A DNA stretch of 58,859 nucleotides from a virus. Its lineage: Duplodnaviria; Caudoviricetes. Made by a program: the position numbers and the translations under genes. Positions within the stretch are counted from its first letter, which is position 1. Each line of letters starts with the position of its first letter. Shown piece after piece: positions 7,207 to 48,185 of the stretch. The DNA is taken from positions 1 through 58,859 of IMG/VR virus record IMGVR_UViG_3300034073_004285. The stretch is one strand, 5' to 3'. The notes under the pieces were generated by a model. That model ran no database searches. It was not told where the DNA came from and worked only from the letters and a program-made list of their open reading frames with translations.

Positions 7207-7488
7207 ATGTTTATGAATAGAGCCTTTAAGTTGACCATAGAGAAGTTCAACATCCGTGCCGTCGATATTGCTAGATCGAGTGGTGTGGCCGAGTCTGATG
7301 TGTCTAGGTTTTTGAACGGAAAAACAGATAGCGGGTATAAGAAGGTTGATAAGTTGATCTCCGCACTGCCTCCAACCGCCAAAGATTACTTTTGGCTGGT
7401 CTACAAAAGCGGGGATGCAGTTTTCGAGCAGGACTGCATCGATCGCCGTCTAGCCGTGTGTGAAAGCGGCGGAAAATACCATGCTTGA
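7207..7488 (+). CDS. CI-like XRE repressor without a peptidase domain
   Basis: IRAVDIARSSGVAESDVSRFLNGK HTH; co-oriented with and overlapping the integrase start. Confidence 0.78.
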   Translation: MFMNRAFKLTIEKFNIRAVDIARSSGVAESDVSRFLNGKTDSGYKKVDKLISALPPTAKDYFWLVYKSGDAVFEQDCIDRRLAVCESGGKYHA

Positions 7489-8524
7489 TCGCCTGAATGC
7501 CAAACTAGAGAGAGTGAAGATACGACAGAAAGGGAATAGACTGTATCTGCGGGCCACGCTACCAGCCCGCACAGGTACAGGAAAATGGAGCCAGACAGAC
7601 GTTAGAACAGGTTGCCCAGCCACCGAAACAGGATACAAGGCGGCATTCGGCAAAGCACAAAAATTAGAATCAGACCTAATATTAGAACGCTTCAACTGGG
7701 ACGACTGGCTAGGAGAAAAAGAGCAACAGTTGATCGTCCCCATCCACCGGAATATAGAAACCGCTATCCAAGCCTTCGGCGATCGCCATTGGGAGAGCAA
7801 CCCCAGAACCAAGGATAAGGAAAAGTATTACCACAACGACTATGGGATCGCCTTTAACCAACTGCCACTGGATGAACCTCTCACCGTGGAAGTACTGAGG
7901 AAAACACTGATCAAAAGCGAACCCGATACCAGAGCCAGACAGCGAAACCACAACGCCTATACCGCACTGGCCAAGTTTGCTGGCTTAGAACTGCCAGCGG
8001 ACTGGAAGAAACTAAAGGGGAACTATAAACCAGCACCCCGAACAATCCCCAGCGATGAAGAAATCCTAGCTGTGTGGGATAACCTCAGCGAGGGAAGATG
8101 GCGGTGGGCTTACGGCATGATGGCCGCCTATGGCTTGCGAAACCATGAACTTGCCAAAATCGATCTATCTCAGTTTCCAGTTCTGCGAGTCCTCCCAGAC
8201 ACCAAAACAGGGGAGCGTCTAGTCTATCCACTCCATAAACACTGGCCCGATCGCCTAGGGTTGGCAGAGTTCAACCCACCCCAGTATTCCGGCACCAGCA
8301 ACCGTAACAACGGCGATCGAGCAATCAAGGCTTTCCACCGATTAGGGATCGAGTTCACCCCCTACGCCTTGCGCCACGCCTACGCCATTAGAGGAGCCAA
8401 ATTAGGAGTCAGTCCGGCGATCGTGGCCAAGTGGCTGGGCCATAGCCTTAGTGTTCACCACAACACCTACAACCGCTGGATCTCCCAACTCGACTTTGAT
8501 AAGATTTGGGATCGGCTAGAATAA
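7481..8524 (+). CDS. int: Tyrosine integrase
   Basis: YGLRNHE (R), TKTG (K), LRHAYAIR, LGHS, C-terminal Y; ATG at 7481 overlaps the repressor stop. Confidence 0.92.
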   Translation: MLDRLNAKLERVKIRQKGNRLYLRATLPARTGTGKWSQTDVRTGCPATETGYKAAFGKAQKLESDLILERFNWDDWLGEKEQQLIVPIHRNIETAIQAFGDRHWESNPRTKDKEKYYHNDYGIAFNQLPLDEPLTVEVLRKTLIKSEPDTRARQRNHNAYTALAKFAGLELPADWKKLKGNYKPAPRTIPSDEEILAVWDNLSEGRWRWAYGMMAAYGLRNHELAKIDLSQFPVLRVLPDTKTGERLVYPLHKHWPDRLGLAEFNPPQYSGTSNRNNGDRAIKAFHRLGIEFTPYALRHAYAIRGAKLGVSPAIVAKWLGHSLSVHHNTYNRWISQLDFDKIWDRLE

Positions 8525-15408: not shown

Positions 15409-15438
15409 TATTTTATTGAAACAACCAACCACAAAACC

Positions 15439-15942
15439 ATGAACACCACAGCTATCGCTCAACACCTCAATATCCTTGATTCCGCAATCATCGAAGTTCA
15501 AGAATGGGCTTCTGTCATTTGGGTTAAATTTGTAGGCGGTTGCCGTTTTGTGTCCAAAAAAATTAACGAGGCTAAAAAAATGAGCAAATTAACAATAATT
15601 GACGGAAAAGGATTTGGTGCTACCATTGTCCATGAAGACGGGCATAGCGAGTATTACAGCCAGCTAAGTGGCGACCTTTACATAGTTGGAACTGTATTAG
15701 GAAATTATTATGATTACCAACATTGTCTAATCGCATTAGATGCTGGCGGCGAAGTGATTGACAGTAGCACCAGTAAATGGGGAGAAACTCGCCTCCACAA
15801 AGTTTCAGTTGATTCCGACAAATTAATTGAATACTGCCAAAAACTAGAAAAAGCACGTAACCCTCGCGCTGGCATGATGCAAACCAGCACAGGTGAGTGG
15901 GTCATGGCAGATGATTGGGATCGGATTGAATGCTGTCGATAA
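15439..15942 (+). CDS. Accessory (moron) hypothetical protein
   Basis: ATG after the AACCAACCAC leader; AT-rich; opposite strand to the tail genes. Confidence 0.7.
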   Translation: MNTTAIAQHLNILDSAIIEVQEWASVIWVKFVGGCRFVSKKINEAKKMSKLTIIDGKGFGATIVHEDGHSEYYSQLSGDLYIVGTVLGNYYDYQHCLIALDAGGEVIDSSTSKWGETRLHKVSVDSDKLIEYCQKLEKARNPRAGMMQTSTGEWVMADDWDRIECCR

Positions 15943-16103
15943 TGAACAAGATCCCCTCTCTCCAACAGTGGCGGCGATTCAAGCTGTGGCTAGACAACGA
16001 TTGCAATGTCAAAGCCACAGCAAAGGCGGACGGCTCCCAGCCTGAAATAATCCGCAAGGCGATCGCCGCCGTCCACTGGCACCTAAAAAAATCAAAAACC
16101 TAA
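15942..16103 (+). CDS. 53-aa putative HTH protein (not in the ORF track)
   Basis: Manual translation MNKIPSLQQWRRFKLWLDNDCNVKATAKADGSQPEIIRKAIAAVHWHLKKSKT; TAATG coupling; ends at a terminator. Confidence 0.55.
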   Translation: MNKIPSLQQWRRFKLWLDNDCNVKATAKADGSQPEIIRKAIAAVHWHLKKSKT

Positions 16104-16105
16104 TC

Positions 16106-16144
16106 AAAATCCCCGCTAACCAACCACGGAAAAGCGGGGATTTT
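16106..16144. terminator. Bidirectional intrinsic terminator with AACCAACCACGGA in the loop
   Basis: AAAATCCCCGC / GCGGGGATTTT 11-bp stem; near-identical copy at 17207-17246. Confidence 0.75.
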
Positions 16145-16190
16145 GCAACTAGCCATAAAGCGGCTTGCACACTTAAAAGTAGTATAGCCT

Positions 16191-16379
16191 ATGACCCCCT
16201 GCCTTTACTGCAACCATCCTAAAACCCACAAGCACGGCGATCGCCGTTTCAAATGTCCCAACTGTGGCAAAACCTTCCGAGTAGATAAACTCTCGGAGAC
16301 GGGAAGGCCTGCGATCGGCGATCGACCCATGACGGGATATGAACGGCTGAAACGTTGCCTCAGAAAAAAAAATTCCTGA
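16191..16379 (+). CDS. InsA-like zinc-ribbon protein
   Basis: CLYC...RRFKCPNCGKTF followed by a basic GRP...ERLKR tail. Confidence 0.6.
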   Translation: MTPCLYCNHPKTHKHGDRRFKCPNCGKTFRVDKLSETGRPAIGDRPMTGYERLKRCLRKKNS

Positions 16380-16384
16380 CCCCC

Positions 16385-16414
16385 TTGTCAGTTTCACACC
16401 ACTTGCGTTATATT
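16385..16414 (+). promoter_or_regulatory. Sigma70-type promoter of accessory island 2
   Basis: TTGTCA-N18-TATATT; shares a CACACC box with the island 1 promoter. Confidence 0.6.
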
Positions 16415-16449
16415 TAAAGAGTCAAACAACCAACCACGGAGACAAAATT

Positions 16450-16749
16450 ATGGAAATTTACCGCTACGCATCAACCGACATTCAACAACACCATCAAGAT
16501 CAGTTATCTAAATTTGGTTTGTGGTGGGCCGACTTGGAAGAGGCAGGAATTGAAACCGCTTATCTTGCATGGGATGGCGATACAATCACGGGATTTCAAA
16601 CCGTATCTATGGATGGGCTATGTGTGGCGATCGAGGTTGATCCCGAATTTCAAGGGCAGGGCATAGCTCGCGCATTGATTAATGAATCTGGTTGTACAAA
16701 GCCAGAACGCAATGAAAATCCTGAATTCTGGGAGGCGATTAATTACTAA
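16450..16749 (+). CDS. Minimal GNAT acetyltransferase
   Basis: IEVDPEFQGQGIARALI acetyl-CoA motif and N..FW; 99 aa, acidic. Confidence 0.8.
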   Translation: MEIYRYASTDIQQHHQDQLSKFGLWWADLEEAGIETAYLAWDGDTITGFQTVSMDGLCVAIEVDPEFQGQGIARALINESGCTKPERNENPEFWEAINY

Positions 16750-17204
16750 TGCGGCAAGTCATTAACTGGGAACCAATAGATCCCATATTGGGAACAAAAC
16801 CAGACCCCGAAATTGCCAAAAGCTTTAATATTCCAAGCACATCCGTTTTGAGAAGACGGCAAAAGCTCGGCATCCCTGCTGTTGGCTTTCACAATAAATA
16901 TCCCTGGCAAAACATCGACCCACTACTGGGGAAAATTTCAGACACCGAAATTAGTAAAAAAATTGATATTCCAAAAACGTCGCTGTATGAGAGGCGAAAA
17001 ATGCTGAATATCCCATCAGCCAAAAAGATAACGGAAGAAATGATCCAGCAGTGGATTGACTGGGAAATAGAAGGCATTCCACAAACTGAAATGGCTAAAC
17101 GCTCAAATGTTCACTGGACAACCGTTCATCGGCATTTGAATACGGCACTAAACAAGCCTAAATTTGGCAAGTTTGCACATTTGATCAAAGAATCCAAGCC
17201 TTAA
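16749..17204 (+). CDS. Triple-HTH DNA-binding protein
   Basis: Two W..IDP.LG...D.EI.K repeats plus a C-terminal QTEMAKRSNVHWTTVHRHL HTH. Confidence 0.7.
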   Translation: MRQVINWEPIDPILGTKPDPEIAKSFNIPSTSVLRRRQKLGIPAVGFHNKYPWQNIDPLLGKISDTEISKKIDIPKTSLYERRKMLNIPSAKKITEEMIQQWIDWEIEGIPQTEMAKRSNVHWTTVHRHLNTALNKPKFGKFAHLIKESKP

Positions 17205-17206
17205 TC

Positions 17207-17246
17207 AAAATCCCCGCCAAACCAACCACGGAAAAGCGGGGATTTT
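17207..17246. terminator. Bidirectional terminator between island 2 and the tape measure gene
   Basis: Same 11-bp stem and nearly the same loop as 16106-16144. Confidence 0.75.
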
Positions 17247-29200: not shown

Positions 29201-29552
29201 TGGGAAGGGTTTTAACTAGGCGATCTAAATCGACGGTAACAGTGATGCCGTTTTTCTTGCTATTAGTATTGACAGTGGTATTGGCTTTGTCAGATCCCGA
29301 TTTTACGGCCAACCCAGCCCGCAACCGCTCCAAACCAGAATCAGTGCGCTTCTGGAAGGAGACAGCAGCATTGATAGCCCCTTCTATAACCTCCAACTCC
29401 GAGCGAATATCGATCAGTGTGGCATTTTGATCTAATTGTGCGCCATACCGTTGGCGACCCACGCCCAACTGCCTAGAGCCAAGGGAGCCGGTTGTATTTC
29501 TGAGCCGTTCAACCGCATCAACGACTGCCACAAAACCACGATTATCAACCAT
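17253..29552 (-). CDS. Giant (~4100 aa) multi-enzyme tape measure protein
   Basis: Follows the tail tube and chaperone genes; tape-measure core (ALQQSLSKQKMSAEEVRGQLGE); C-terminal GFASGGYTG...AGIVHAGEFVL; embedded GHSFGG, YHGT, WYHAS, two HEYTH, HQGID/HLH and RlpA-like motifs. Confidence 0.9.
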   Translation of the reverse strand: MVDNRGFVAVVDAVERLRNTTGSLGSRQLGVGRQRYGAQLDQNATLIDIRSELEVIEGAINAAVSFQKRTDSGLERLRAGLAVKSGSDKANTTVNTNSKKNGITVTVDLDRLVKTLPKAIASEIRRQPLRIQTGFLEKVGQGLFQGLGNQFVKGFDRGTKKNIGINTESVGYGVGNFATNPVAGVKDAIKARRSWQTQNAALRDALLVADNAEKIKLDENRENVFTVGGVARRQGRAGSYVGREIKNEFGVQNVKTITVENPNTDVSLDMETIKGVYGALKKAKVDNATIGNIINGLQGLRFAVGQIDSMLVRGYNPDASQLAGQVIAAKRQNPQAKISLAGHSFGGLVVEEALAILQQAGITDVAGFGIATPDLGVGFNQQNYQSFLGEKDFVGQDMAVQVMRPDLLPETQRLTDEENAKLGGHELPQYLKHSAVAGALSSRLRPTTPNAVQERLAGEASQQAKELLSSIEGLNGPELDQLRSELLLLSSSLDAVNADPLNISPLQEAIAVLQEGMAGLSVTVEQLRQGLESLQAPLEQMGGRKKGTALSRQYADRLSEIVDSSRRSAGETVRTLIPNFKDMNLSQKRDTAAQYNKGLQGQVKAYRQAVQDGDRQLAAEIGEKLLADAQTVDQVYGDLLAALPSDYVGTKSLQSQRNQVKRIQNEVLKGDKGAGRVPVGLPDLVAESEGLADSGDNAAQSFIDSVRGKLAGVQSAGVGIGEALKAGVDDSLDMHSPSEEMRDRGEMAGDSFVSGLESTISEARAVVSEQMEGVLKELKAALEDANKYFDIATLNKPLTVYHGTSGRSAKAIRSKGFLRGDQLDDDAFRGGGHDVIQRSTSFSLSPKVAANFASQAQYYQDIPTILLATIKKGTKIALIKFGAEFAEDLEGEIEKVMKRLGISLAYLDAEKEVVSFEPSQLSLSKKQFAGSNPFKNPFTESNLDVSIQNAVDFLTKAVESQLAELKGAGVGIGEALKAGVDDSLDMHSPSEEMKDRGKNAGDSFGMGAVESLRDAGKAISAEVEKLKATIAKDLEYLRAVATGDTAKARRMVDKTAKNSVYGNQKWYHASKEGLNFTEFDQSYIRDLGFHFGTKDQAKEFGKAKPYFVNKGESLEVADLNDWQSDTVAWELGNKGIETPNLDSVKQSLSSGEYNAISTKMMDAWLFEKKAEREAAQTAWILDKEKDEQIPTTAEDLLNKKHLVEEAIWKDIQGAGYQSLSYLNKYEGNKRQNSLMVFNPNQIKSAKPVTTTDAGVPVPLSARFDDSVADIRGNVNDIFAGLKSQAGEALQPLIAELETQFAAMGDNSINSLIDSLEGLLGKLRGTGESVGQTLAQGTEDALGIDSPSKVYKAIGKDVIAGLEGGLEGFEGTLEEKRKLLETYVKSVIELVYDFKKVMGEAETPAQEVRKLFQEIGKAGNATPEQLTQAKGYFPQLGILANGGIAGASYDVLNNKILAREKASINDFIHEYTHALQFNLKGLPPNQEDYSVDELTRFSPSLSLSGWKELQKKPMPPRIAGGVKSSADHYVSLFPSAPPTDRDKLRTFAESIESEAYANAEGIESKFNRRKELRFSKRPFFRADAESVAPQIKQQKIRNRLQKQFDRATEDAPDKENLRSVFDFALLGYDTNKKSFNSEAFELAEQALSTEGLENYKKALSDIGINVTDSLTQSIEGDLGDVKDSGAAIGKALSQGTEDALQIDSPSKVFKAIGKQIIAGLESGLEGFEGTLEEKRKLLETYVKSVIEVVYDLPKVTGEAVTPAEKVRKLFQEIGKTGTATTAQLEEAKGYFPNLKQLPAGSPAAAVYQVRENKIVIDPKRGEQLPEDLIHEYTHAMQSRFGVGSRWADKPQDYLRYQGVLGRRAEMDDPRVKQSAGRSAQAFMGQLGIDSTDRRYQQGFDHIAAAEAEAYGNELGIGKERQRRGFFRAEAEEMAQQFRVLKAQAKRQAEEAKQTAAAVGQGFADGYEEGRKAILERINGFLDWLEGIPLLGQLVKWGRGIAGAIAGLFKGQEKATAAAKPKPTPKPQPKATATVKPTPAVADPWEEQPQPQPQITEPIKEAIDSQKQAERWLAYVHQWATELGEEFEVALDDEIEELKASGENVAQSLRSKIDNISQELDDKKAAFRQAIAKGNAEISKAIGTELVEQSEKLRVLFKKMAQNVKFFEGRGMWRDQAAEMTKLQREAVKGYPNVKGRAPVGVYQAIAESTSDGFTEGIEGELKEAENSGYALGEAAIKGAKKALGIKSPSREFYEMALQVVQGWNMGMEELGGDGENNIVRFIRQVDQGVAGGIDKIKEGFSGLFSKVGEAFPIFGQLKNLILGFGAAMILENVFTMAVQGFGAMAAGAFDTVIAFESLNRAFVAISGSSAKAETNLQFVANTAKKLGVDLKTAEDAYLGLLSTTRGTALEGTQTQQIFEAFSQTASVRGLSNEEQGRMFAALQQSLSKQKMSAEEVRGQLGEIAALDFQGTLARSLGVSVAQLDDLMSSGELLASDVMPKIAAQYAAENAVVANSSETTAQAIARYQNSLEQFRRSLSSWFDQAKVIFNGLSALIDWFTSAMPTVIQIVSALGLVLAWNSASLLAGFAKTAIAGALFKSAIAATMSVLKSALPVIGTYLGQIILIQLAIDAVTAAFNVTQDRFDEFTKSLDTAKKATIEMKKTLAELNNTASETKTLFTGRIVSEESWSPFGIDIKPLAEKVGIDPEAGMGQNIGKLARFGPLALMGKNANLEAIRQGVGLRTLGEKQFDDFLIKGGDSVFNAYSTLQEQIGAEKLVEDVKKIDEEINRIRTRRANLIKGDTEQYGKIVKEEQELLKERERLFKGTSAYATALEEDITTLKQGLEDLANIKAPESQKDSLRLSMETALADLEKTKQSYDDLSNSLQKSLSFLERQMRNLNEQYTAFNENLNRQATNNRVKFLRQATSQGTGTTVQGLGLGSLDSQATQERIVFLRKQVEEINSYLTEPKTAKLLEELAEQAKLEGTDLNNSATLDRLINDISPDSGERKSVAVMLKRMLEIQDELGQSEEQLAQSLLDQKNGLFDLSRSIQDFFQQLTLQIEETRLEIERVKNQMKYGRIRQKLQQAIAPGSNTFMNGIIGTIQGIFDQAGQLMEKAIGQKSSLLQFGSEKYSLENQMIDFGRSVNGATEAVEAFKAALGMGNAVLDGAGQTTATQSAIRGGRFYPLVNGQVGISSGQRYGANRDGGRRKHQGIDFNAAVGEAVHSVAAGTIKEIKLWDKKVNSHKIVVIGDDGVTYVYGHVVPKNIKEGQRVGAGDRLASISAKDRLSSGPHLHFETWRNGKSFDPTSMVSGLPRPTQSNLAKAPTQTVANAPSGMQPTGKTRTAKASFYGGPTDPTRWHGRKTASGEVYDENGLTVAVPWRSKTDKRPSIPFGTYLLVTNPANGKQVVVRVTDTGNFGTDAQYGGRGLDLSYGAAKALGTIQSGVANVNYQTVSPGAKPQPVATSVSYNQPSATPPAISTVPDPAVQKAKSDTATLVGLKKAVVDGNAELLNQEFKDFRINSAAEILGAGVQLDQELRNLGNDVADLKNQFADLDDQYSPQTLSRQAAAENRQAENQLRQLTNQLTEREIVLKQAIATMTDFAPALREASSQLGIAPEAAANMRGLADRLESEFLPAYQKALAETQNYQAQLEPLRAKMQEFNQLQQAIRQTNQDAELAALKAQAAAETRQDLLKRDAEIERANVEFKKQSLELSTRLEGDELAKQLKYHEQIRDAQIVTANYEYDSLLRARELEIVQGKLAIAVFNGNIEQQLKLELQQIELETLTEIARINREITDETTKQTMLAQTLETSQNRQKQAYFDDVNRRLELQNIERDLAARNAENRANLTTNPFEATAIREQQAIAARRAEFEQKAIELRQKYQGNPALAESLVSREAEILAQDLQLIDRQFRDVSETVGDMLSGAFNNFFTALINGENAIQAFTNSLLQSITELGSQMIQQGLNGLFGGIFEGAIPGFASGGYTGNGDRLQPAGIVHAGEFVLNKKATQKIGLPTLNLLNRLPGYFDGGYVGLESRLLSGLNTYQSPRLSLPDNGDRRGMAGATTNTVNVNINDKESRFYRQSRTLAREMASELRNV

Positions 29553-29826
29553 TGCCCCCAAGCCCCTTTAGTGTTTTTTGAATGCTTTTTTTGTCCCCTT
29601 GAGCGGCCACACTAGTCAGAATTAATTGACTACGCCTATCCTCCGCCTCCAACTCCATAGCGCACTCCAAAAAGAGTTTGATTTGGGGGTAGGTGTAATT
29701 CCTAATCTCTGACCAGCTATGACCGGCCCTGATTAATCGGCTGATTCTAATACCCCAGTCTTCGGCGTTTCCGCTTTGACCTCCTCTTTTTTGGGTTGCA
29801 CGATCGCCATTAGTTTCGGAAAAAAA
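29545..29826 (-). CDS. Tail assembly chaperone C-terminal extension (gpGT-like), reached by -1 frameshift
   Basis: T TTT TTT slippery run at 29820-29826. The -1 frame is open through DWGIRISRLIRAGHSWSEIRNYTYPQIKLFL to a TGA overlapping the tape measure start. Confidence 0.75.
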   Translation of the reverse strand, partial: FFSETNGDRATQKRGGQSGNAEDWGIRISRLIRAGHSWSEIRNYTYPQIKLFLECAMELEAEDRRSQLILTSVAAQGDKKSIQKTLKGLGGNG

Positions 29827-30173
29827 TCCATGTTCTGTTTCAGAACTTCTGCCATCAAACTTAGGACTTCATCGTGCCCCAGTTCTTGCAATTTTTCTTT
29901 TTCTACGCCAGAGCAAACGTGGAGAATATGCAACATATCACCGGCGATCGCCGCCTTACTTTCCCCACAACCAAGGATGGCGGAGAGTAAGGCGAAATTG
30001 TCTTGATTAGCGGTTTCATCCCCCAGTACTTTGAAGTAACGATCAATGATGGCGATCGCCTCAGCACCTTCATCGGTGAGGATTTTGATAGGGCCAATTT
30101 TCACGTCACCAACGGAAGTTTTGAATGTTTTGGTGGGTACAAGAACGGTTAATTGAGAAGCCATATTGTTCAC
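29733..30173 (-). CDS. Tail assembly chaperone (gpG-like)
   Basis: Position between the tail tube and tape measure genes; NMDFF slippery site. Confidence 0.78.
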   Translation of the reverse strand: MNNMASQLTVLVPTKTFKTSVGDVKIGPIKILTDEGAEAIAIIDRYFKVLGDETANQDNFALLSAILGCGESKAAIAGDMLHILHVCSGVEKEKLQELGHDEVLSLMAEVLKQNMDFFPKLMAIVQPKKEEVKAETPKTGVLESAD

Positions 30174-42150: not shown

Positions 42151-42165
42151 AAAATAAATTTATAC
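42151..42165 (-). promoter_or_regulatory. Late-promoter-like motif GTATAAATTTATTTT
   Basis: Just upstream of the protease ATG at 42146. Confidence 0.55.
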
Positions 42166-43455
42166 AAGCCGCTTGATTTCCCGCTCTATCACGGCGATCG
42201 CCTTTTTGTAGGGCAGGTTTGGGGTAAAGCATTCCGTATCGCCACCACGCAACAGCAAAGGGAATAACATGGCTGGCTGTCTATAATGCCGAAACCGCTT
42301 CAATACCTTTTGCTCTATCTGGTATGCGTAAATGCCGGGGTCGATCTGCCATTCGTACCTTTCTTTGACAAATAATGCGTCTTTCCCAAACCTATCTTCT
42401 ATCGTGCTGTTAGTAATCCCAATCTTCCAAAATTCAGCAAAATCTTTTTGGAACCGAATAAAGTAAAGTATTCCAGGCTTGCCAAAGTTAAATCCATACT
42501 CCGCGCACTTGCAACACCCCTGCCCTCTTAGATGATTATTGGCTACCTGCTCAAATACTCCGTGTTCTGGGCAAATAACTTTAACCTTTTCTTTGTTGCT
42601 AGAGTACTCAACCAATGAATAGTCATATCGGTTGCCATGGACAATTACGGCTTCAGATATAAAATCCTCTGTTGTTTTCTGCGCCACCCCGGCACATTTA
42701 ATACAGCCACGCCCTTTAACGTGATCTTTTGGTGTTTGCTCAAATACACCATGATCGGGGCATATTATTTTGACCTTTTCTTTGTTGCCATAATACTCAA
42801 CCAATGAGTAGTCGTACTTGCCTCCATGAACTATGTTTGATTCATCAATAAATTCTTCAGTCGTCTTTTTCGCTGTCCCACCACATCTTGCACACCCATA
42901 ACTCATATGCTCACATGGAGATTGTTCAAATACGCCATGATCGGGGCATATTATCTTAACCTTCGCTCTTGCATTAATGTATTCAGTTAATGAGTAGTCG
43001 TACCTATATCCATGCACCGATTGCGCGGACTGAATAAAATCGTCTGTTGTTTTTGTTCTGGACTTAGCCCTTTGAAGTTTTCCACACTCGGTGCATCCTT
43101 TCCCCGCTAAATGACCGTTTGGCGTCTGGGCAAATATCCCATGATCGGGGCATATTATTTTGACCTTCTTGTTAGACTTTATATACTCAGCCATTGAATA
43201 GTCATACTTGCACCCGTGAACTAATAACGCATCGCGGATAAAGTCATCGGTATTTTTCCCTTTCCCTTGGCACTTAAGACACCCACTCCCTTGCAAGTGT
43301 CCATTGGCACACTGTTCAAACAATCCATGATCGGGGCAGATTATTTTTACCTTAAACTTTGCCTTGACATATTCAGTCTGGGAATAATCGTATTTGTGAC
43401 CATGTACGGATTGCGCCTCTTGAATAAATTGCGCTGTAGTCTTACACTTTTTCAT
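42160..43455 (-). CDS. Putative free-standing homing endonuclease: five DUF723-like Zn repeats plus GIY-YIG-like domain
   Basis: Five F...A..VHG.KYDYS..EY...KVKIICPDHG.F.Q...H..G.GC..C units; LYFIRF...WKIGIT...RF...GDTECF. Confidence 0.8.
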   Translation of the reverse strand: MKKCKTTAQFIQEAQSVHGHKYDYSQTEYVKAKFKVKIICPDHGLFEQCANGHLQGSGCLKCQGKGKNTDDFIRDALLVHGCKYDYSMAEYIKSNKKVKIICPDHGIFAQTPNGHLAGKGCTECGKLQRAKSRTKTTDDFIQSAQSVHGYRYDYSLTEYINARAKVKIICPDHGVFEQSPCEHMSYGCARCGGTAKKTTEEFIDESNIVHGGKYDYSLVEYYGNKEKVKIICPDHGVFEQTPKDHVKGRGCIKCAGVAQKTTEDFISEAVIVHGNRYDYSLVEYSSNKEKVKVICPEHGVFEQVANNHLRGQGCCKCAEYGFNFGKPGILYFIRFQKDFAEFWKIGITNSTIEDRFGKDALFVKERYEWQIDPGIYAYQIEQKVLKRFRHYRQPAMLFPLLLRGGDTECFTPNLPYKKAIAVIEREIKRLV

Positions 43456-43522: not shown

Positions 43523-45115
43523 TTACAATCTTTGCATCTGTTTTTTCCGTTTTCTAGGTAACCGTTTTTCCCTTGGTGGTGTTACTGGCTTAGGTTGATT
43601 TTCCTGCTGTGCGTCATCTGCCAAAATTGCCTCGGCATCCACTTCAATGGGCTCAAAATTGACACCATATTTTTTCTCTAACTCCATCTCCATTGCTTTC
43701 TCCCGAAGGATGTCCTCGTAATCAATCCCCTTTTCTGCCAAAAATCGGGTTCGAGTATTTACGCCCAGCGATATTTCAAGCTCTGTGGACTTCAGATCTT
43801 TTAGCGGGTCAACCCACGGCATAGAACTACCGCACCACCAATCACAGACATAATCTGCCTTGTTGAACTCGTAATCCCTGGGCATCGTAACAAAACCCGA
43901 CATTGCCGCCGCATCCAGCCAGTGCCGAAAAACAGGGGAGTTCAAGTCTGTATTCAGTCGATCCCGTAACAGTTTCACCCGCCGCCATTCGTTCAATTTC
44001 CCTTCACGCAAACTTGAATAATTAGCACTGCTCAAATCTTTATGAACTTGGTGGGCACTTAATCCCAAAATCCCTGCAATACTGCGCTGAAAATGCTGTG
44101 CAAAATCAACCAACTTGTCATTGGGGCTGGAAGCATCGAAGGGTGCTATTTTTTGCCCCGGCTGTAAATACTCAATCATGCCGGGATATAACTCTTTGCC
44201 CCACTGCCCCGATTCATCAATAAATTCCGGTTCGATGTCTGGAAATTCGGATTCTATAAAGACGGAAATAGCGGATTGCACTCGCGCTTTAACAATTTCA
44301 CTTTCTTCAAGCCCCAACAGGTTACGAGCTTTCAGTATGCCTGCATGGATCGCCGGAACTCCCCTAGTCTGCCCCGGACGCCATCCCTGACGGTTTACCA
44401 AGTGCAAAACCTGCCAAGCCGGAACGGGTTTAGACTGGAATCCTTGGGTTCTGGCACCGTAAAAGTCCCCAGGGTGATCTTCCAATAGCCAGTAATATTC
44501 TGGCCGTTTCCACTCGTTAACCTCCACCCCCATCCTGATCTCGTTACCGTTTTTTGCTCTAGCAAAATTTAGGCGATCATCCAACTGATCTACCTCGATT
44601 AACTCCAAGGCAAAAGGCACTGGGGAATCGTCAAAACGCTTACTCACCAACCGCACTAACACGCCGCCATCTACCAGCATTGAGTGCAAAACTGTTGCCT
44701 GCATTTCCCAGAAAGTCTGACGGCCCGCCGCATCACACCAGCTAGGATTATTGGCCCAACGGTTAAATTTCTTTTCAATTTCCTCATTTAGCCGTAAATT
44801 CAAACCGCCGCCGCGCTTCATTTGCACCTGACTTTGCAAGTGAATCCCTGTATCTACCACCAAAGAAACAAGTTCATCGATCGCCGTTTGAACGTTGGAG
44901 TCGTCCTGATAGAGGGAGCGACTCCTGGCGATTAGAAGTCGCAGACTACTCCAGATTTCATTGTCGGCACTGGTTTGGCCAACGTGCCAATCTAGGACAC
45001 CCGTTGTGTTAGTGCTAGCCCCTGCGTATTTGCGGATGCCATAGCTCCGCCCCTGTTTCTCTACAGGCAAGGGGATTTTAAATAAATTGGCGATCGCCGT
45101 TTGGAAGCGGTTCAT
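43523..45115 (-). CDS. Portal protein, lambda family
   Basis: ARSRSL, RPGQTRGVP, DLSSANYSSLR, WVDPLKD. Confidence 0.95.
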   Translation of the reverse strand: MNRFQTAIANLFKIPLPVEKQGRSYGIRKYAGASTNTTGVLDWHVGQTSADNEIWSSLRLLIARSRSLYQDDSNVQTAIDELVSLVVDTGIHLQSQVQMKRGGGLNLRLNEEIEKKFNRWANNPSWCDAAGRQTFWEMQATVLHSMLVDGGVLVRLVSKRFDDSPVPFALELIEVDQLDDRLNFARAKNGNEIRMGVEVNEWKRPEYYWLLEDHPGDFYGARTQGFQSKPVPAWQVLHLVNRQGWRPGQTRGVPAIHAGILKARNLLGLEESEIVKARVQSAISVFIESEFPDIEPEFIDESGQWGKELYPGMIEYLQPGQKIAPFDASSPNDKLVDFAQHFQRSIAGILGLSAHQVHKDLSSANYSSLREGKLNEWRRVKLLRDRLNTDLNSPVFRHWLDAAAMSGFVTMPRDYEFNKADYVCDWWCGSSMPWVDPLKDLKSTELEISLGVNTRTRFLAEKGIDYEDILREKAMEMELEKKYGVNFEPIEVDAEAILADDAQQENQPKPVTPPREKRLPRKRKKQMQRL

Positions 45116-45138
45116 ATTATTTGCGGCTACTTTCCCCC

Positions 45139-45153
45139 AGTCTGAATTTATAC
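45139..45153 (-). promoter_or_regulatory. Late-promoter-like motif GTATAAATTCAGACT
   Basis: Upstream of the portal gene. Confidence 0.68.
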
Positions 45154-45155
45154 AG

Positions 45156-45467
45156 CTAGACTTTTTCGAGTAAAACGCCTAGATCGTACTGGGAGAGCAC
45201 CTGAGCAATAATTTCTGTCACTTCCTCGGGGGAAACACTGGGGCGATCGATGATCTCGGTTAATTTGTCGATATTTTGCCGGCAGTAGGCTAGGAAAAAA
45301 TCGTCTAACTCGCTGATGGTTTTTTCGGCTTCGGCTTCGATAATTTTGGCCCGTTGATCTAGCTTGTGCCACAGGTACCTAAATATCTCCACCTGCACCG
45401 GCTTTAGGAATCCTTCCACCACAACGCCCAACGCTAAGCCGATTAGGATGCTGCAAATAGTTGCCAC
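45156..45467 (-). CDS. Hypothetical membrane-anchored protein
   Basis: N-terminal TM segment; GGAGGAG RBS; late-type motif GTATAAACCTAAGCT at 45492-45506. Confidence 0.6.
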   Translation of the reverse strand: MATICSILIGLALGVVVEGFLKPVQVEIFRYLWHKLDQRAKIIEAEAEKTISELDDFFLAYCRQNIDKLTEIIDRPSVSPEEVTEIIAQVLSQYDLGVLLEKV

Positions 45468-45507
45468 TGGTTTCTCCTCCGCTTTTTTCCTAGCTTAGGT
45501 TTATACG

Positions 45508-45537
45508 CAAAAAAATCCCGCCACTAGGACGGGTTTG
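45508..45537 (-). terminator. Intrinsic terminator closing the cassette array
   Basis: CCCG...CGGG hairpin followed by a T-run on the minus strand. Confidence 0.55.
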
Positions 45538-45541
45538 GGAG

Positions 45542-45658
45542 TTATTTGTTGCGGTTGAATTGTCGGTTACAGTCACGGCATAGCCACTGCTGTTTTCCTG
45601 ATTTGGCTACGCCGTTTTTGACTGTGTTTAGGCTGTTACAGTTTGGGCAGACTTTCCC
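45542..45658 (-). CDS. InsA-like zinc-ribbon extension of cassette 4, reached by -1 frameshift
   Basis: G GGA AAG heptamer at 45652-45658; -1 frame reads GKVCPNCNSLNTVKNGVAKSGKQQWLCRDCNRQFNRNK* with no start codon ahead of the first CxxC. Confidence 0.7.
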   Translation of the reverse strand, partial: GKVCPNCNSLNTVKNGVAKSGKQQWLCRDCNRQFNRNK

Positions 45659-46062
45659 TCAATTTTGCCGTATTCGGCATCTAACAACCGGCGCTTGTGT
45701 TGGTAGACTAACTCTTTAAAATCATTTTCAGATGTGACGATTTCAACTTTGATTAACGCCATAGAGTAAACATCTCCGTAGCTGACTACTTGAGCAATAA
45801 ACCGAGTGCCCGGGGGCAACTCGACTACGTTGCTCCACTCATAACCGCCTTTGTAATTTTTTTGACGGTTGTATTTCTCGTCTTTTCCGAGGGCGGAAGT
45901 GCCTCCAAGTTGCAAGGTTTCATCGCCTGTGACGGTTCCAGCAAAAATGCCGTCTTTATCGGTGGGGGGATAATCGCAAGCGATGGTTACAACTTCTCCT
46001 TTTTCTGTCACATATTGCCCAGATACTTGGGCATTGCCTGTTGCTTTTTTGATGCTTTTCAT
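45628..46062 (-). CDS. Accessory cassette 4, hypothetical protein
   Basis: Preceded by the 43-bp repeat. Confidence 0.7.
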   Translation of the reverse strand: MKSIKKATGNAQVSGQYVTEKGEVVTIACDYPPTDKDGIFAGTVTGDETLQLGGTSALGKDEKYNRQKNYKGGYEWSNVVELPPGTRFIAQVVSYGDVYSMALIKVEIVTSENDFKELVYQHKRRLLDAEYGKIEGKSAQTVTA

Positions 46063-46081
46063 TGACTTTCCCTATAGTTGA

Positions 46082-46124
46082 TTGGTTTACTTGCCCCTGA
46101 TTAGCGACAGAGGCGATCGCCGGT
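46082..46124. repeat. Inter-cassette repeat (HIP1, hairpin, leader), copy A
   Basis: 43 bp identical to 46402-46444. Confidence 0.9.
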
Positions 46125-46133
46125 TGGAGTTAA

Positions 46134-46379
46134 TTAAATAACGATATAATCACCGTCCAAAATCTGGTTTTTCACCTTTTCCCATACTGGATAGGCGGGC
46201 AAGACTTGCCACTTTGTGGCCTTGTCACGATCTTGAGTGACTACCGCAACGGTGCGGGTGTTGTTTTTGCGATATTTAATCGCCTCTTTAGTAACGGGGG
46301 ACGCTACTGCGGGTTTTATAACCCGGTAGCCATTATAGAAATAGTTTTGACCGCCGACTATGACTTGCATTACGTTCAT
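46134..46379 (-). CDS. Accessory cassette 3, hypothetical protein
   Basis: Bracketed by the two identical repeats. Confidence 0.7.
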   Translation of the reverse strand: MNVMQVIVGGQNYFYNGYRVIKPAVASPVTKEAIKYRKNNTRTVAVVTQDRDKATKWQVLPAYPVWEKVKNQILDGDYIVI

Positions 46380-46401
46380 GATTGTCTAACTTCCTTTGTG
46401 G

Positions 46402-46444
46402 TTGGTTTACTTGCCCCTGATTAGCGACAGAGGCGATCGCCGGT
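46402..46444. repeat. Inter-cassette repeat, copy B
   Basis: 43 bp identical to 46082-46124; a diverged third copy is at 46689-46740. Confidence 0.9.
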
Positions 46445-46449
46445 GTAGT

Positions 46450-46677
46450 TTAACCTAGATCCCATGTTGCAACAGTTTCGTCAGGGGACTCCCCTTGATG
46501 ATACTGGGCACTCCATTGATCAAATTTAATGTTTTGGTCGTTTAATATTTTTTCAAGGTCAGCAGTCGGGACACTGCTAGGGAAGGATAAAACTACTTTT
46601 TTGCCTTCGGTTTTGATTAAGATCTCGCCGCCCTGTACAGAAGCTACGGTTGTCCAGTCATTAGTTAAAGCGTTCAT
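46450..46677 (-). CDS. Accessory cassette 2, small acidic protein
   Basis: ATG after the AACCAACCACCGGAG leader. Confidence 0.68.
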   Translation of the reverse strand: MNALTNDWTTVASVQGGEILIKTEGKKVVLSFPSSVPTADLEKILNDQNIKFDQWSAQYHQGESPDETVATWDLG

Positions 46678-46742
46678 GATTATCTCCGGTGGTTGGTTGT
46701 TTGTAGTGCCATCCATTAGGCGGGATGGCGATCGCCGGTTAA

Positions 46743-47051
46743 TTAAATTTTGTGGGCAGGAATATACCCTGATTGATCACAATTTTTTACCCATTGCTTG
46801 ATTGCATATTCATCACTGACCTGCACTAGGGTTTCGCCATCGTCCCCCACTATGTATGCACCCGTCGCATAGGTATGCACCCCATTCCAAATGGAAACTT
46901 CCCCTTTAACCACCGTGCCACGCTTGCCTTGTGGGGGATGCAATTGGAAACGCAAGAAAAATGGGGAAGATCCTATTTTTTCGTTTTCGTCGTACAACAA
47001 AACGCCAATTGCTCCGGGTGTAAATTTGTAGTCTAGTTTAATTGCGTTCAT
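46743..47051 (-). CDS. Accessory cassette 1, hypothetical protein
   Basis: ATG after the AAACCAACCACAAGGA leader. Confidence 0.68.
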   Translation of the reverse strand: MNAIKLDYKFTPGAIGVLLYDENEKIGSSPFFLRFQLHPPQGKRGTVVKGEVSIWNGVHTYATGAYIVGDDGETLVQVSDEYAIKQWVKNCDQSGYIPAHKI

Positions 47052-47267
47052 GGCTTCATTCCTTGTGGTTGGTTTACTGGGTTGGGACTGTCCCCTCCAC
47101 CCATGAATCCAATATAATCCCCCATCCCTAGCTCTATCATGTCGTCTTGTGACACCTTTAAAACTGGCACACGATTTATTGACTTTTATGAAAACTGTGA
47201 TATAGAAGCAAAAACCCCCTATATAGTAGGGGGCTGAGTCCTTAGAGTTTACCTTTTCGTCCAAAAC

Positions 47268-47669
47268 CTAGTTTTTTTTTAGTTTACTAGCACCACCGGC
47301 AAACTTGCCTTTCAACCCACCGCCAGCACTTAACCCAGCTACACCACCGCCAGCCAGCTTAGCTTTTAGTTGCTCTAGGGCTCCGGTTAGCTCAGACTGG
47401 GGGACAGTCCCGGGCACTGGCAGATCGTTAAATTTTGCCATAAAGGCGTTTAACTCCTCGATTGAATTGACGGTAGGTAACTCCTCGACAGGAATAGTAA
47501 TACCGTATTGCCCTTGCAGAATCTCAGAATTGTAAATGTTCAAGAGTTCCTGAGCAGGCATATTCAAGGCTTCGTTGAACTTATCCTCGATACCCAACTC
47601 TTTGGCGTGTTTACGCAGTACCTCCGTGGCTTGGGCACGGGTTTGATCGTTGACAGGGGAAGCAGACAT
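47268..47669 (-). CDS. Hypothetical late protein
   Basis: Late-type motif GTATAAATCCACAAT at 47698-47712; GGAG RBS; followed by a hairpin at 47210-47236. Confidence 0.65.
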   Translation of the reverse strand: MSASPVNDQTRAQATEVLRKHAKELGIEDKFNEALNMPAQELLNIYNSEILQGQYGITIPVEELPTVNSIEELNAFMAKFNDLPVPGTVPQSELTGALEQLKAKLAGGGVAGLSAGGGLKGKFAGGASKLKKN

Positions 47670-47695
47670 AAATACTCCGTGATGGGCGATTTCCT

Positions 47696-47971
47696 TTATT
47701 GTGGATTTATACGGCGGGGACTAATCGGCTTTTTTTGGGGTGGCCGCCACGCCTGCCAAGCGGACTGGATCGCCGTGGCTTGTACCGAGGTGAAGGTGCT
47801 GTTTTTGCACAATTTTTTGAGCCGTTCTTGTAGGGTGATTTGCGCCTGCCGGTGGGGGAAGGGGAAGATCCCCTTTTTCTGTTCCTCCAACTCTTTTTTG
47901 TAAGCTTCGTTCACCGCCCGCTCCCAGTTTTTGAGGGCGATCGCCAGTTGTTCAGTAGATTCCTGTAGCAC
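47696..47971 (-). CDS. Hypothetical protein
   Basis: ORF in the minus-strand run. Confidence 0.5.
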   Translation of the reverse strand: MLQESTEQLAIALKNWERAVNEAYKKELEEQKKGIFPFPHRQAQITLQERLKKLCKNSTFTSVQATAIQSAWQAWRPPQKKPISPRRINPQ

Positions 47972-48185
47972 ATTGCCCCCCGTTTAGAGAGTAGTTTGGT
48001 AGGCGAATTGTGTTCTGTGAAGCGAGGTAAGTCTGGAGGAAACGGAATTGTTCCTTGTTTAATTGAATTGCGGAGTTTGAAAAATGTAACTCAGCACCTG
48101 CCTCGTTAACAATAATTTGGGTGACTAAATCGAGGTTTAACCATTGCGGTAGGGTTGATTCCCCCTTGGGAAAATATAAGAACAT
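47952..48185 (-). CDS. Hypothetical protein
   Basis: AAGGAG RBS. Confidence 0.55.
   Translation of the reverse strand: MFLYFPKGESTLPQWLNLDLVTQIIVNEAGAELHFSNSAIQLNKEQFRFLQTYLASQNTIRLPNYSLNGGQCATGIY

Follow-up and report, generated by a model that had tools for sequence, protein, structure and literature searches.

In tailed phages, programmed frameshifts are annotated almost only in tail-chaperone genes, and an excerpt of the paper on PRFect counts 2397 of the 2476 joined genes of its training set as tail assembly chaperones (TACs) (PMC10885494). Here, a candidate programmed -1 frameshift is described in an accessory array of small open reading frames (ORFs) of the virus record IMGVR_UViG_3300034073_004285 (Duplodnaviria; Caudoviricetes). 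This is a complete record of 58,859 bp with terminal repeats, which was analyzed over its whole length and is referred to as the window. Comparison of related sequences makes it very likely that a slip of the X XXA AAG class adds a zinc ribbon to the last protein of this array. The slip site, a start-less ribbon, a stop codon at fixed distance, a hairpin and a terminator appear to form one portable unit, called the module in the following, which occurs in at least five mosaic cyanophage-like genomes. No description of such a module was found in the open-access PMC or bioRxiv literature.

Comparison with known systems

For the lambda G/GT frameshift, the 30:1 molar ratio of G to GT is called crucial in an excerpt of a review by Atkins and co-workers (PMC5009743). 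The present site resembles lambda G/GT in its heptamer G GGA AAG, in the placement of the -1 slip close to the 3' terminus of a small ORF and in the predicted combination of a major short with a minor extended isoform. In contrast to lambda, the site is located outside the tail module, its ORF has no chaperone homology and the window harbors a TAC overlap of its own (29733..30173 / 29545..29868). The extension is a 36-residue ribbon instead of the T domain, and the unit is common to dissimilar partner genes. This apparent portability of a recoding unit between genes is its unusual feature. The 144-aa ORF that carries the site has no PHROG match, and the ORF assigned to the TACs (phrog_1442) is the one at 29733..30173. 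The initial annotation, which had been made from the letters of the window alone, placed the recoding outside the tail genes, and the separate location of the TAC overlap bears this out.

The heptamer A AAA AAG of the dnaX and IS3/IS911 frameshifts is used in two of the four distinct module versions described below, but neither an upstream Shine-Dalgarno (SD)-like stimulator nor a closely spaced stem-loop was seen here. IS1 slips on A AAA AAC. In this element the zinc ribbon is N-terminal in InsA, is followed by a helix-turn-helix (HTH) and lies upstream of the slip, which adds the transposase, with the DDE part encoded downstream by insB. The domain appended in the present case belongs to the IS1 InsA zinc-ribbon family, but the order is reversed, as the ribbon follows the slip, and a transposase is present in none of the five module-bearing records. 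The site would operate in the manner of lambda G/GT and of the dnaX and IS frameshifts, but belongs neither to the tail-chaperone nor to the IS1 systems.

In acr-aca operons, variable anti-defense genes are closed by a conserved autorepressor gene, and the Aca proteins are free-standing HTH proteins. The arrays analyzed here share with them the variable small ORFs, a conserved inverted repeat close to the promoter and a coding element conserved at the 3' end. They differ in that this element is a 36-residue ribbon without HTH, which is predicted to be a trans-frame extension, and no known Acr was recognized (no Acr library was searched). Short motifs between small variable ORFs in hyperplastic regions also characterize the PeSL promoter-terminator cassettes of T4-like phages, as far as they are described in excerpts of two papers (PMC2839356, PMC4122927). 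Unlike these, the arrays contain HIP1 leader and ribosome-binding site (RBS) repeats within one operon, belong to siphovirus-like genomes and carry a recoding module at their end.

Candidate slip site and -1 frame in the window

The module is located on the minus strand, and its parts in the window are as follows.

45628..46062, minus strand: 0-frame ORF of 144 aa encoding an orphan protein, last gene of the array
45661..45659, minus strand: TGA that shuts the -1 frame directly 5' of the heptamer
45658..45652, minus strand: slippery heptamer G GGA AAG, in phase with the 144-aa ORF
45658..45545, minus strand: -1 frame ORF of 38 codons, starting GGG AAA GTC TGC CCA AAC TGT, four-Cys InsA-type zinc ribbon
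45628..45630, minus strand: 0-frame stop TAA, seven codons past the heptamer, with an A-site to A-site spacing of 8 codons
45569..45625, minus strand: bipartite hairpin of 6 + 11 pairs, fold z -3.25, consensus fold of the four versions
45544..45542, minus strand: -1 frame stop TAA
45510..45533, minus strand: intrinsic-terminator-like hairpin CCCGTCCTAGTGGCGGG plus T run (hairpin with T run to 45517), 8 nt past the -1 stop

The 3' end of the 144-aa ORF (46062..45628) reads GAG GGA AAG TCT GCC CAA ACT GTA ACA GCC TAA, and the AAG codon of the heptamer encodes K137. Read in the -1 frame, this region encodes the zinc-ribbon peptide GKVCPNCNSLNTVKNGVAKSGKQQWLCRDCNRQFNRNK (GKVCPNC...CRDCNRQFNRNK), and ATG, GTG and TTG are absent from the entire -1 ORF. 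Past the slip this frame contributes 36 new residues, which gives a predicted trans-frame product of 137 + 36 = 173 aa with the junction ...IEGK/VCPNCNSLNTVK. The 0-frame TAA sits inside the ribbon codons CTA AAC. The anatomy proposed in the initial annotation, namely an in-phase G GGA AAG, an adjacent TGA, no start codon, a CxxC ribbon and a terminator after it, was confirmed in every detail.

The heptamer GGGAAAG by itself is not beyond chance in the window (15 seen versus 13.96 expected). The conjunction of features at the slip site is beyond chance, because each of the four distinct module versions, which come from five viral records, shows it. GGGAAAG is also found on the minus strand at 46072..46066, 3 nt ahead of the ATG of the 144-aa ORF (context GGGAAAGTCAATG; slip site GGGAAAGTCTGCC), and at 45136..45130, just upstream of the portal start. 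The 10-mer AGGGAAAGTC is common to a start site and the slip site.

Recurrence of the module in other genomes

Degenerate patterns of the ribbon core located the module in four further IMG/VR records, G001 (66.8 kb), G002 (56 kb), G003 (52 kb) and G004 (37.5 kb). G003 is identical to G001 over 8,672 nt, and four distinct versions are therefore distinguished (heptamer in brackets). Two further patterns applied to viral contigs returned the same four records together with L021 and L022, which are chance matches without a zinc ribbon.

Window: GA[G GGA AAG] TCT GCC CAA ACT GTA ACA GCC TAA, partner ORF of 144 aa
G002: AT[G GGA AAG] CCT GTC CAG CCT GCG GAA GTC TAA, partner ORF of 75 aa
G001/G003: CC[A AAA AAG] TCT GTC CAA ACT GCG ACA GCC TAA, partner ORF of 105 aa
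G004: GC[A AAA AAG] TCT GCC CGG ACT GCG GTG GCA TAA, partner ORF of 103 aa from the first ATG

The ribbon lies in the -1 frame of the end of the upstream ORF in all four versions. Each of them harbors an in-phase X XXA AAG at the same position (twice G GGA AAG and twice A AAA AAG), which is followed by exactly seven codons and then TAA. A TGA shuts the -1 frame 0, 2, 7 or 2 codons upstream, and no start codon is present in this frame in three of the four versions (window, G001/G003 and G004). In alignment A2 the versions are similar in nucleotide sequence from the AAAG of the heptamer onwards and not upstream of it, and blastp gave no significant similarity among their partner proteins of 144, 105, 75 and 103 aa (best E 0.48). 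G001 to G004 are mosaic relatives of the window, with sliding clamp, dCTP deaminase, integrase, ribonucleotide reductase (RNR) beta and thymidylate synthase at 32–66% identity, and the array adjoins different genes in the different genomes (portal, sliding clamp, integrase, dCTP deaminase). The initial annotation had suggested a search for the heptamer upstream of similar zinc ribbons. Its presence in phase in every distinct version strongly supports the claim made there that a -1 frameshift appends an InsA-like zinc ribbon.

A different origin of the ribbon is conceivable, in which it is made as a separate small protein from an initiation of its own, at a non-canonical start or by re-initiation, and the heptamers are incidental. 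G002 has an in-frame ATG with GGAAAG seven bases upstream, and the GGGAAAG copies ahead of the 144-aa ATG and the portal start suggest that the heptamer can resemble a ribosome-binding motif. However, the -1 ORFs of the window, G001/G003 and G004 contain no ATG, GTG or TTG, and re-initiation past the 0-frame stop would lose the first CxxC, which lies upstream of that stop. Separate initiation, which is considered improbable, also leaves unexplained that X XXA AAG is in phase in four of four versions, with GGG or AAA just 5' of AAAG.

Selection on both reading frames

Between the versions, 25–32 differences occur in 117 nt (21–27% divergence), and there is neither an indel nor a stop codon. In the ribbon frame, the proportion of differing synonymous sites (pS) is 0.57–0.69 and that of nonsynonymous sites (pN) is 0.13–0.20, which corresponds to a pN/pS of 0.22–0.32, whereas the other two frames show values of 1.0–2.75. 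All four Cys codons alternate between TGC and TGT. The pN/pS of the ribbon frame and the switching of Cys codons indicate that the ribbon is translated in this frame in every lineage.

The 0-frame tails that overlap the ribbon (SAQTVTA, SVQTATA, PVQPAEV and SARTAVA) are not conserved as protein, but their stop codon is. The TA of the 0-frame TAA comes from a ribbon codon that reads CTA in three versions and ATA in the fourth (Leu, Leu, Leu, Ile), whereas the corresponding residue is H, K, T and V in the four closest in-frame relatives that were fetched. The other Leu codon of the peptide is free to vary (CTA, TTA, CTG, TTA). As judged from this codon usage, the choice of TAA-bearing codons shows selection on both frames at once.

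Family and relatives of the zinc ribbon

The -1 peptide matches the Pfam family Zn_ribbon_InsA (PF03811) with 29.1 bits, above the curated cut-off of 26.1 (E 8.4e-7), and only zinc-ribbon families match the 38-residue piece. The piece has the CxxC...CxxC pattern, with four Cys residues that do not vary in alignment A4. It is located at the C-terminus and ends 8 residues past the last Cys.

A HMMER search with the zinc ribbon yielded 417 proteins at E<=0.001. Relatives were drawn from the best 150 of these matches, and 10 of them were fetched. The top-ranked matches among these 150 are tandem zinc-ribbon arrays. The closest single-copy relative is P0128 (69% identity), which combines an XRE-type HTH_3 with a zinc ribbon and is likely a DNA-binding regulator. 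P0142 (66%) and P0147 (61%) are small proteins with the ribbon at the extreme C-terminus and without similarity to the partner proteins of the module versions. Their architecture indicates that in-frame proteins consisting of a small domain and a C-terminal zinc ribbon exist. A tblastn search of the ribbon against phages matched 85 records, all below 60% identity and none informative, and the pattern QWLCRDCNRQF had 0 matches in viral and genome contigs. A profile search of the PDB returned only C2H2 zinc-finger knuckles covering half of the motif and was judged uninformative. L018 was rejected as a relative of the module, since it is an InsA-like gene of the ordinary N-terminal kind that begins with an ATG of its own. 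InsA-like ribbons in ordinary frames also occur in the module-bearing genomes: a second, N-terminal one with its own ATG in G001 and G003 (G001:C1:12861-13269, G003:C1:51920-52247) and a multi-ribbon protein in an ordinary open frame in G002 (G002:C1:14495-14840).

DDE_Tnp_IS1 (PF03400) was found in none of the five module-bearing records, and the E. coli control was positive. The possibility that the ribbon is part of an IS1 element was rejected on these grounds and on its C-terminal position. A related explanation is that the ribbon is an untranslated, decaying relic, either of an old in-frame fusion broken by a 1-nt indel or of a captured IS1-type insA N-terminus. The InsA-like domain, the in-frame fusions seen in P0142 and P0147 and one relative with a non-canonical heptamer would fit such an origin. 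Nevertheless it is very improbable, as pN/pS is 0.22–0.32 at a pS of about 0.6, the four versions diverge by 21–27% without having acquired a stop or indel, DDE_Tnp_IS1 is missing and the four partners are without significant similarity.

RNA structure and terminator

The hairpin downstream of the heptamer comprises 17 pairs, with 91.2% of cells paired in the four versions versus 25–43% when the partners were slid. It begins 26 nt past the heptamer and 2 nt past the 0-frame TAA. Equivalents of the terminator-like hairpin follow the module in G001/G003 and G004, and a weaker one is present in G002. No Rfam match was obtained over 45000..47400, and no consistent upstream SD-like motif is present in alignment A2.

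The presence of the hairpin in all four versions (91% of cells paired), the abrupt start of similarity at the module border and the occurrence of other conserved non-coding repeats in the arrays could mean that what is conserved here is a non-coding element of RNA or DNA (a hairpin with terminator or an array recombination site), with the open frame as a by-product. This is marginally less probable than a relic. Against it, only one frame shows a concentration of substitutions at synonymous sites, the peptide scores above a curated Pfam cut-off, the covariation of the hairpin is not significant and Rfam gave no match.

Assembly check and metagenome variants

Contigs of the Logan runs X1, X2 and X4 showed 0 differences and 0 gaps over 45300..46111 at depths of 12.6, 155 and 571; these runs are from one study, possibly the source of the window itself. 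X5 record 16, a 151-nt contig of depth 3 that stems from another study, spans 45569..45717 with 14 differences and 0 gaps, and thus the ribbon is still in the -1 frame there. It is also without a start codon in this frame. Six of its 14 differences are listed, and the ribbon changes among them are conservative, namely AAA to CGA (K to R, two adjacent bases), V to I and N to A (two bases) between the first two Cys. A single-base indel, named in the initial annotation as a finding that would speak against recoding, was looked for in the contigs, and no indel was seen. A sequencing or assembly error, by which a 1-nt indel would have split a gene truly fused in frame, could have been promoted by the short G and A runs at the site but is refuted for practical purposes by the identical contigs of three runs without gaps and by the -1 offset common to the relative from the other study and four other assemblies.

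Two low-depth contigs covering parts of 45539-45592, X4 record 10 and X5 record 15, of which 30 letters each were seen, encode VKNGVTRYGK... and KNGTTRYNRQ..., in register with the window codons. These variants imply that more module versions are present in these metagenomes.

The 144-aa protein and its relatives

The 144-aa protein matches no Pfam family, and its AlphaFold2 model is of low confidence (mean predicted local distance difference test 53.8). The ESM Atlas gave no match above 0.80 and no template modeling score above 0.40. Only two relatives of it were found among 5.8 billion clusters, P0002 with 162 aa (77% identity) and P0003 with 173 aa (76%). Their extra length is N-terminal, and both end where the window protein ends (...KIEGKSAPVATV and ...KIAGNDARPVAV). 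Homologs that encode the fusion in frame, which the initial annotation had regarded as contrary to recoding, were not seen in these two proteins; a search for a longer protein was also empty, which is weak evidence, and the search of the 5.8 billion clusters contained no predicted protein with the ribbon fusion. The tails of P0002 and P0003 appear compatible with an overlapping CxxC, because they have A or V at positions 139 and 142, residues whose codons begin with GC or GT as needed for TGC or TGT in the -1 frame.

No match of the region or the 144-aa protein was obtained by blastn and tblastn against 50,697 phage records. Searches of viral and metagenome contigs with the 144-aa protein or alignment A1 yielded no confirmed relative, and a degenerate pattern for HKRRLLDAEYGKI had 0 matches each in metagenome, viral and genome contigs.

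Predicted mechanism of the frameshift

During translation of the final array ORF, ribosomes would reach G GGA AAG, and most of them would stay in frame and terminate seven codons on at the embedded TAA, releasing the 144-aa protein. A minority would slip one base back, with the P- and A-site tRNAs re-pairing on GGG AAA, and would read 36 more codons. The slipped product would be a 173-aa isoform with a C-terminal InsA-type four-Cys ribbon, and transcription would stop 8 nt later at the intrinsic terminator. We infer from the arrangement that slipping occurs and that the slipped isoform is minor. Transcriptional slippage was rejected as unlikely for both G GGA AAG versions, in which the longest base run is 3.

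According to excerpts of the review by Atkins and co-workers, G_GGA_AAG and A_AAA_AAG are highly shift-prone in E. coli, and a single tRNA-Lys reads both AAA and AAG in about half of the known bacteria (PMC5009743). As far as these excerpts go, a low-level slip on a bare heptamer is therefore plausible. A stimulator of the usual kind is missing here, but it is not obligatory for low-level -1 sites. In an excerpt of Smith et al. 2019, a slippery heptad located 8–10 codons (A-site to A-site) before a stop is stated to increase -1 frameshifting about 2-fold, with a peak at 9 codons, or at 8 codons without bL9, and the cause given is a collision of the trailing ribosome with a ribosome stalled at the stop (PMC6815119). 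The module resembles this situation, since the distance from AAG to TAA is 8 codons in four of four versions and the TAA is kept by codon choice. The excerpt describes an engineered UGA reporter in E. coli, whereas the present sites are natural and use TAA. A leading ribosome held at the conserved TAA and at the hairpin just beyond may place its follower on the heptamer and in this way act as the stimulator, instead of a structure at the usual spacing. The module thus offers a natural test case for the tuning of a low-level -1 slip without a classical stimulator, possibly via a stop at fixed distance.

Several observations weigh against a programmed slip. The -1 frame of G002 contains an ATG six codons ahead of the heptamer, which opens a 44-aa ORF from which the ribbon could be made without slipping. 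The distinct versions number only four, and the pairs that share GGG or AAA may be non-independent. At the residue for which the heptamer requires K, P0003 has N, and its heptamer, if any, would be G GGA AAY. In X5 record 16, GGA is replaced by GGG at 45655, a change that is silent in the 0 frame and gives G GGG AAG, which breaks X XXY YYZ; a difference in one contig of depth <5 may be an error. The covariation of the hairpin is not significant, as two pairs changed on both sides but 70 of 500 shuffles did likewise, and no stimulatory structure is present at the usual spacing of 5–9 nt.

Organization of the arrays

The array of the window (47171..45510, minus strand) consists of a leader repeat with ACATGATAG, four ORFs, the slip site, the ribbon and the terminator. 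Two further features of it are of interest.

47148..47171, minus strand: inverted repeat TGTGCCA-N10-TGTCACA followed by ACATGATAG, at the 5' end of the array, candidate operator/promoter element
46063..46133, minus strand: intergenic repeat (HIP1 site, AAACCAAyCA leader, RBS) before the 144-aa ORF, with sisters at 46380..46449 and ~46690..46742

A similar stretch of HIP1 site, ...AAACCAAyCA... and RBS precedes each of the four array ORFs. The inverted repeat is the only exact match in the window, and with at most one mismatch there are 3 matches versus 0.22 expected, two of which are the same site on both strands. In the form TGTGnCA-N10-TGTnACA it stands at the head of the array in the window, in G001, where it is perfect (TGTGACA-N10-TGTCACA), and in G002, whereas only the ACATGATAG part was seen at the array head of G004. 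The module closes arrays of 2–4 variable small ORFs in all four versions, and the array ORFs show no significant similarity between genomes. The scaffold of the array, with leader/RBS repeats of about 55–70 nt, is common to at least four versions (window 45510-47171; L011, L012, L026).

The contigs of X1, X2 and X4 all break at the repeat 46082..46124, where the summed depth is up about 3.7-fold (47 versus 12.6 in X1). This rise implies several near-identical repeat copies among the contigs of the runs. On the plus strand, the leader motif (A/C/T)AACCAACCAC is found four times before small ORFs at 15422, 16117, 16427 and 17219 (window 15422-17229), which suggests a second array of similar build at 15422-17229, without the zinc-ribbon module.

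Putative function of the ribbon

Since each version has a different partner, and since G002 could produce the ribbon by itself, the ribbon is probably the functional unit, with the N-terminal partner perhaps of lesser importance. The ribbon may serve as a tail that binds nucleic acids or proteins and possibly regulates the array. By analogy with acr-aca operons, the Aca-like role proposed in the initial annotation, with a low-abundance fusion as regulator of the operon, can be considered, but seems rather unlikely. The position of the module as the conserved 3' end of variable arrays, the conserved inverted repeat at the promoter and the XRE-type HTH of P0128 argue for it. In contrast, a 36-residue ribbon on four different carriers and without HTH would be an unusual repressor; no HTH was found in the appended piece, and Pfam gave no match for the 144-aa part. 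Somewhat less likely again is a travelling cassette in which slipping is driven by collision and the ribbon isoform feeds back via the promoter repeat. If this were true, the translation load on the last gene would act as the sensor that sets the output of the operon.

The module also provides a natural test case for what a bare InsA-type ribbon does on arbitrary proteins. For gene callers, which now miss such domains, a pattern could be defined from X XXA AAG, the start-less ribbon behind it and a stop after seven codons.

Genome context and host

The palindrome GCGATCGC, which we take to be HIP1, occurs in 64 copies in the window versus 0.66 expected, and the related loci contain 6–10 copies per 10 kb. 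The HIP1 palindrome is typical of cyanobacteria. Its excess indicates that the virus is probably a cyanophage, and points to cyanobacterial hosts of the window and the related viruses.

By PHROG assignment, the genes on the minus strand are in the order TerS, dCTP deaminase, TerL, head-tail joining protein, PhoH and RNR beta, followed by the small orphan ORFs at 48185..45542, of which the 144-aa ORF is the last. Past the orphan block, a 103-aa ORF, a lambda-family portal, an endonuclease and a protease/major-head fusion follow on the same strand. The probable recoding site of the tail genes is located further away.

30173..29733, minus strand: TAC ORF (phrog_1442), overlapped by a -1 ORF (29868..29545) that reaches a 4102-aa tape-measure-like gene

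An in-phase T TTT TTT is present in this canonical overlap at 29826..29820 (minus strand), and the overlap is the probable G/GT-type frameshift of the phage. No tRNA genes were found in the window. An integrase gene is located at 7460..8524. The endonuclease-like protein past the orphan block (42160-43455, minus strand, 431 aa) contains five to six KVKIICPDHG..F zinc knuckles and a T5orf172 domain (phrog_681, DUF723). This insertion between the portal and protease/major-head genes probably encodes a homing endonuclease.

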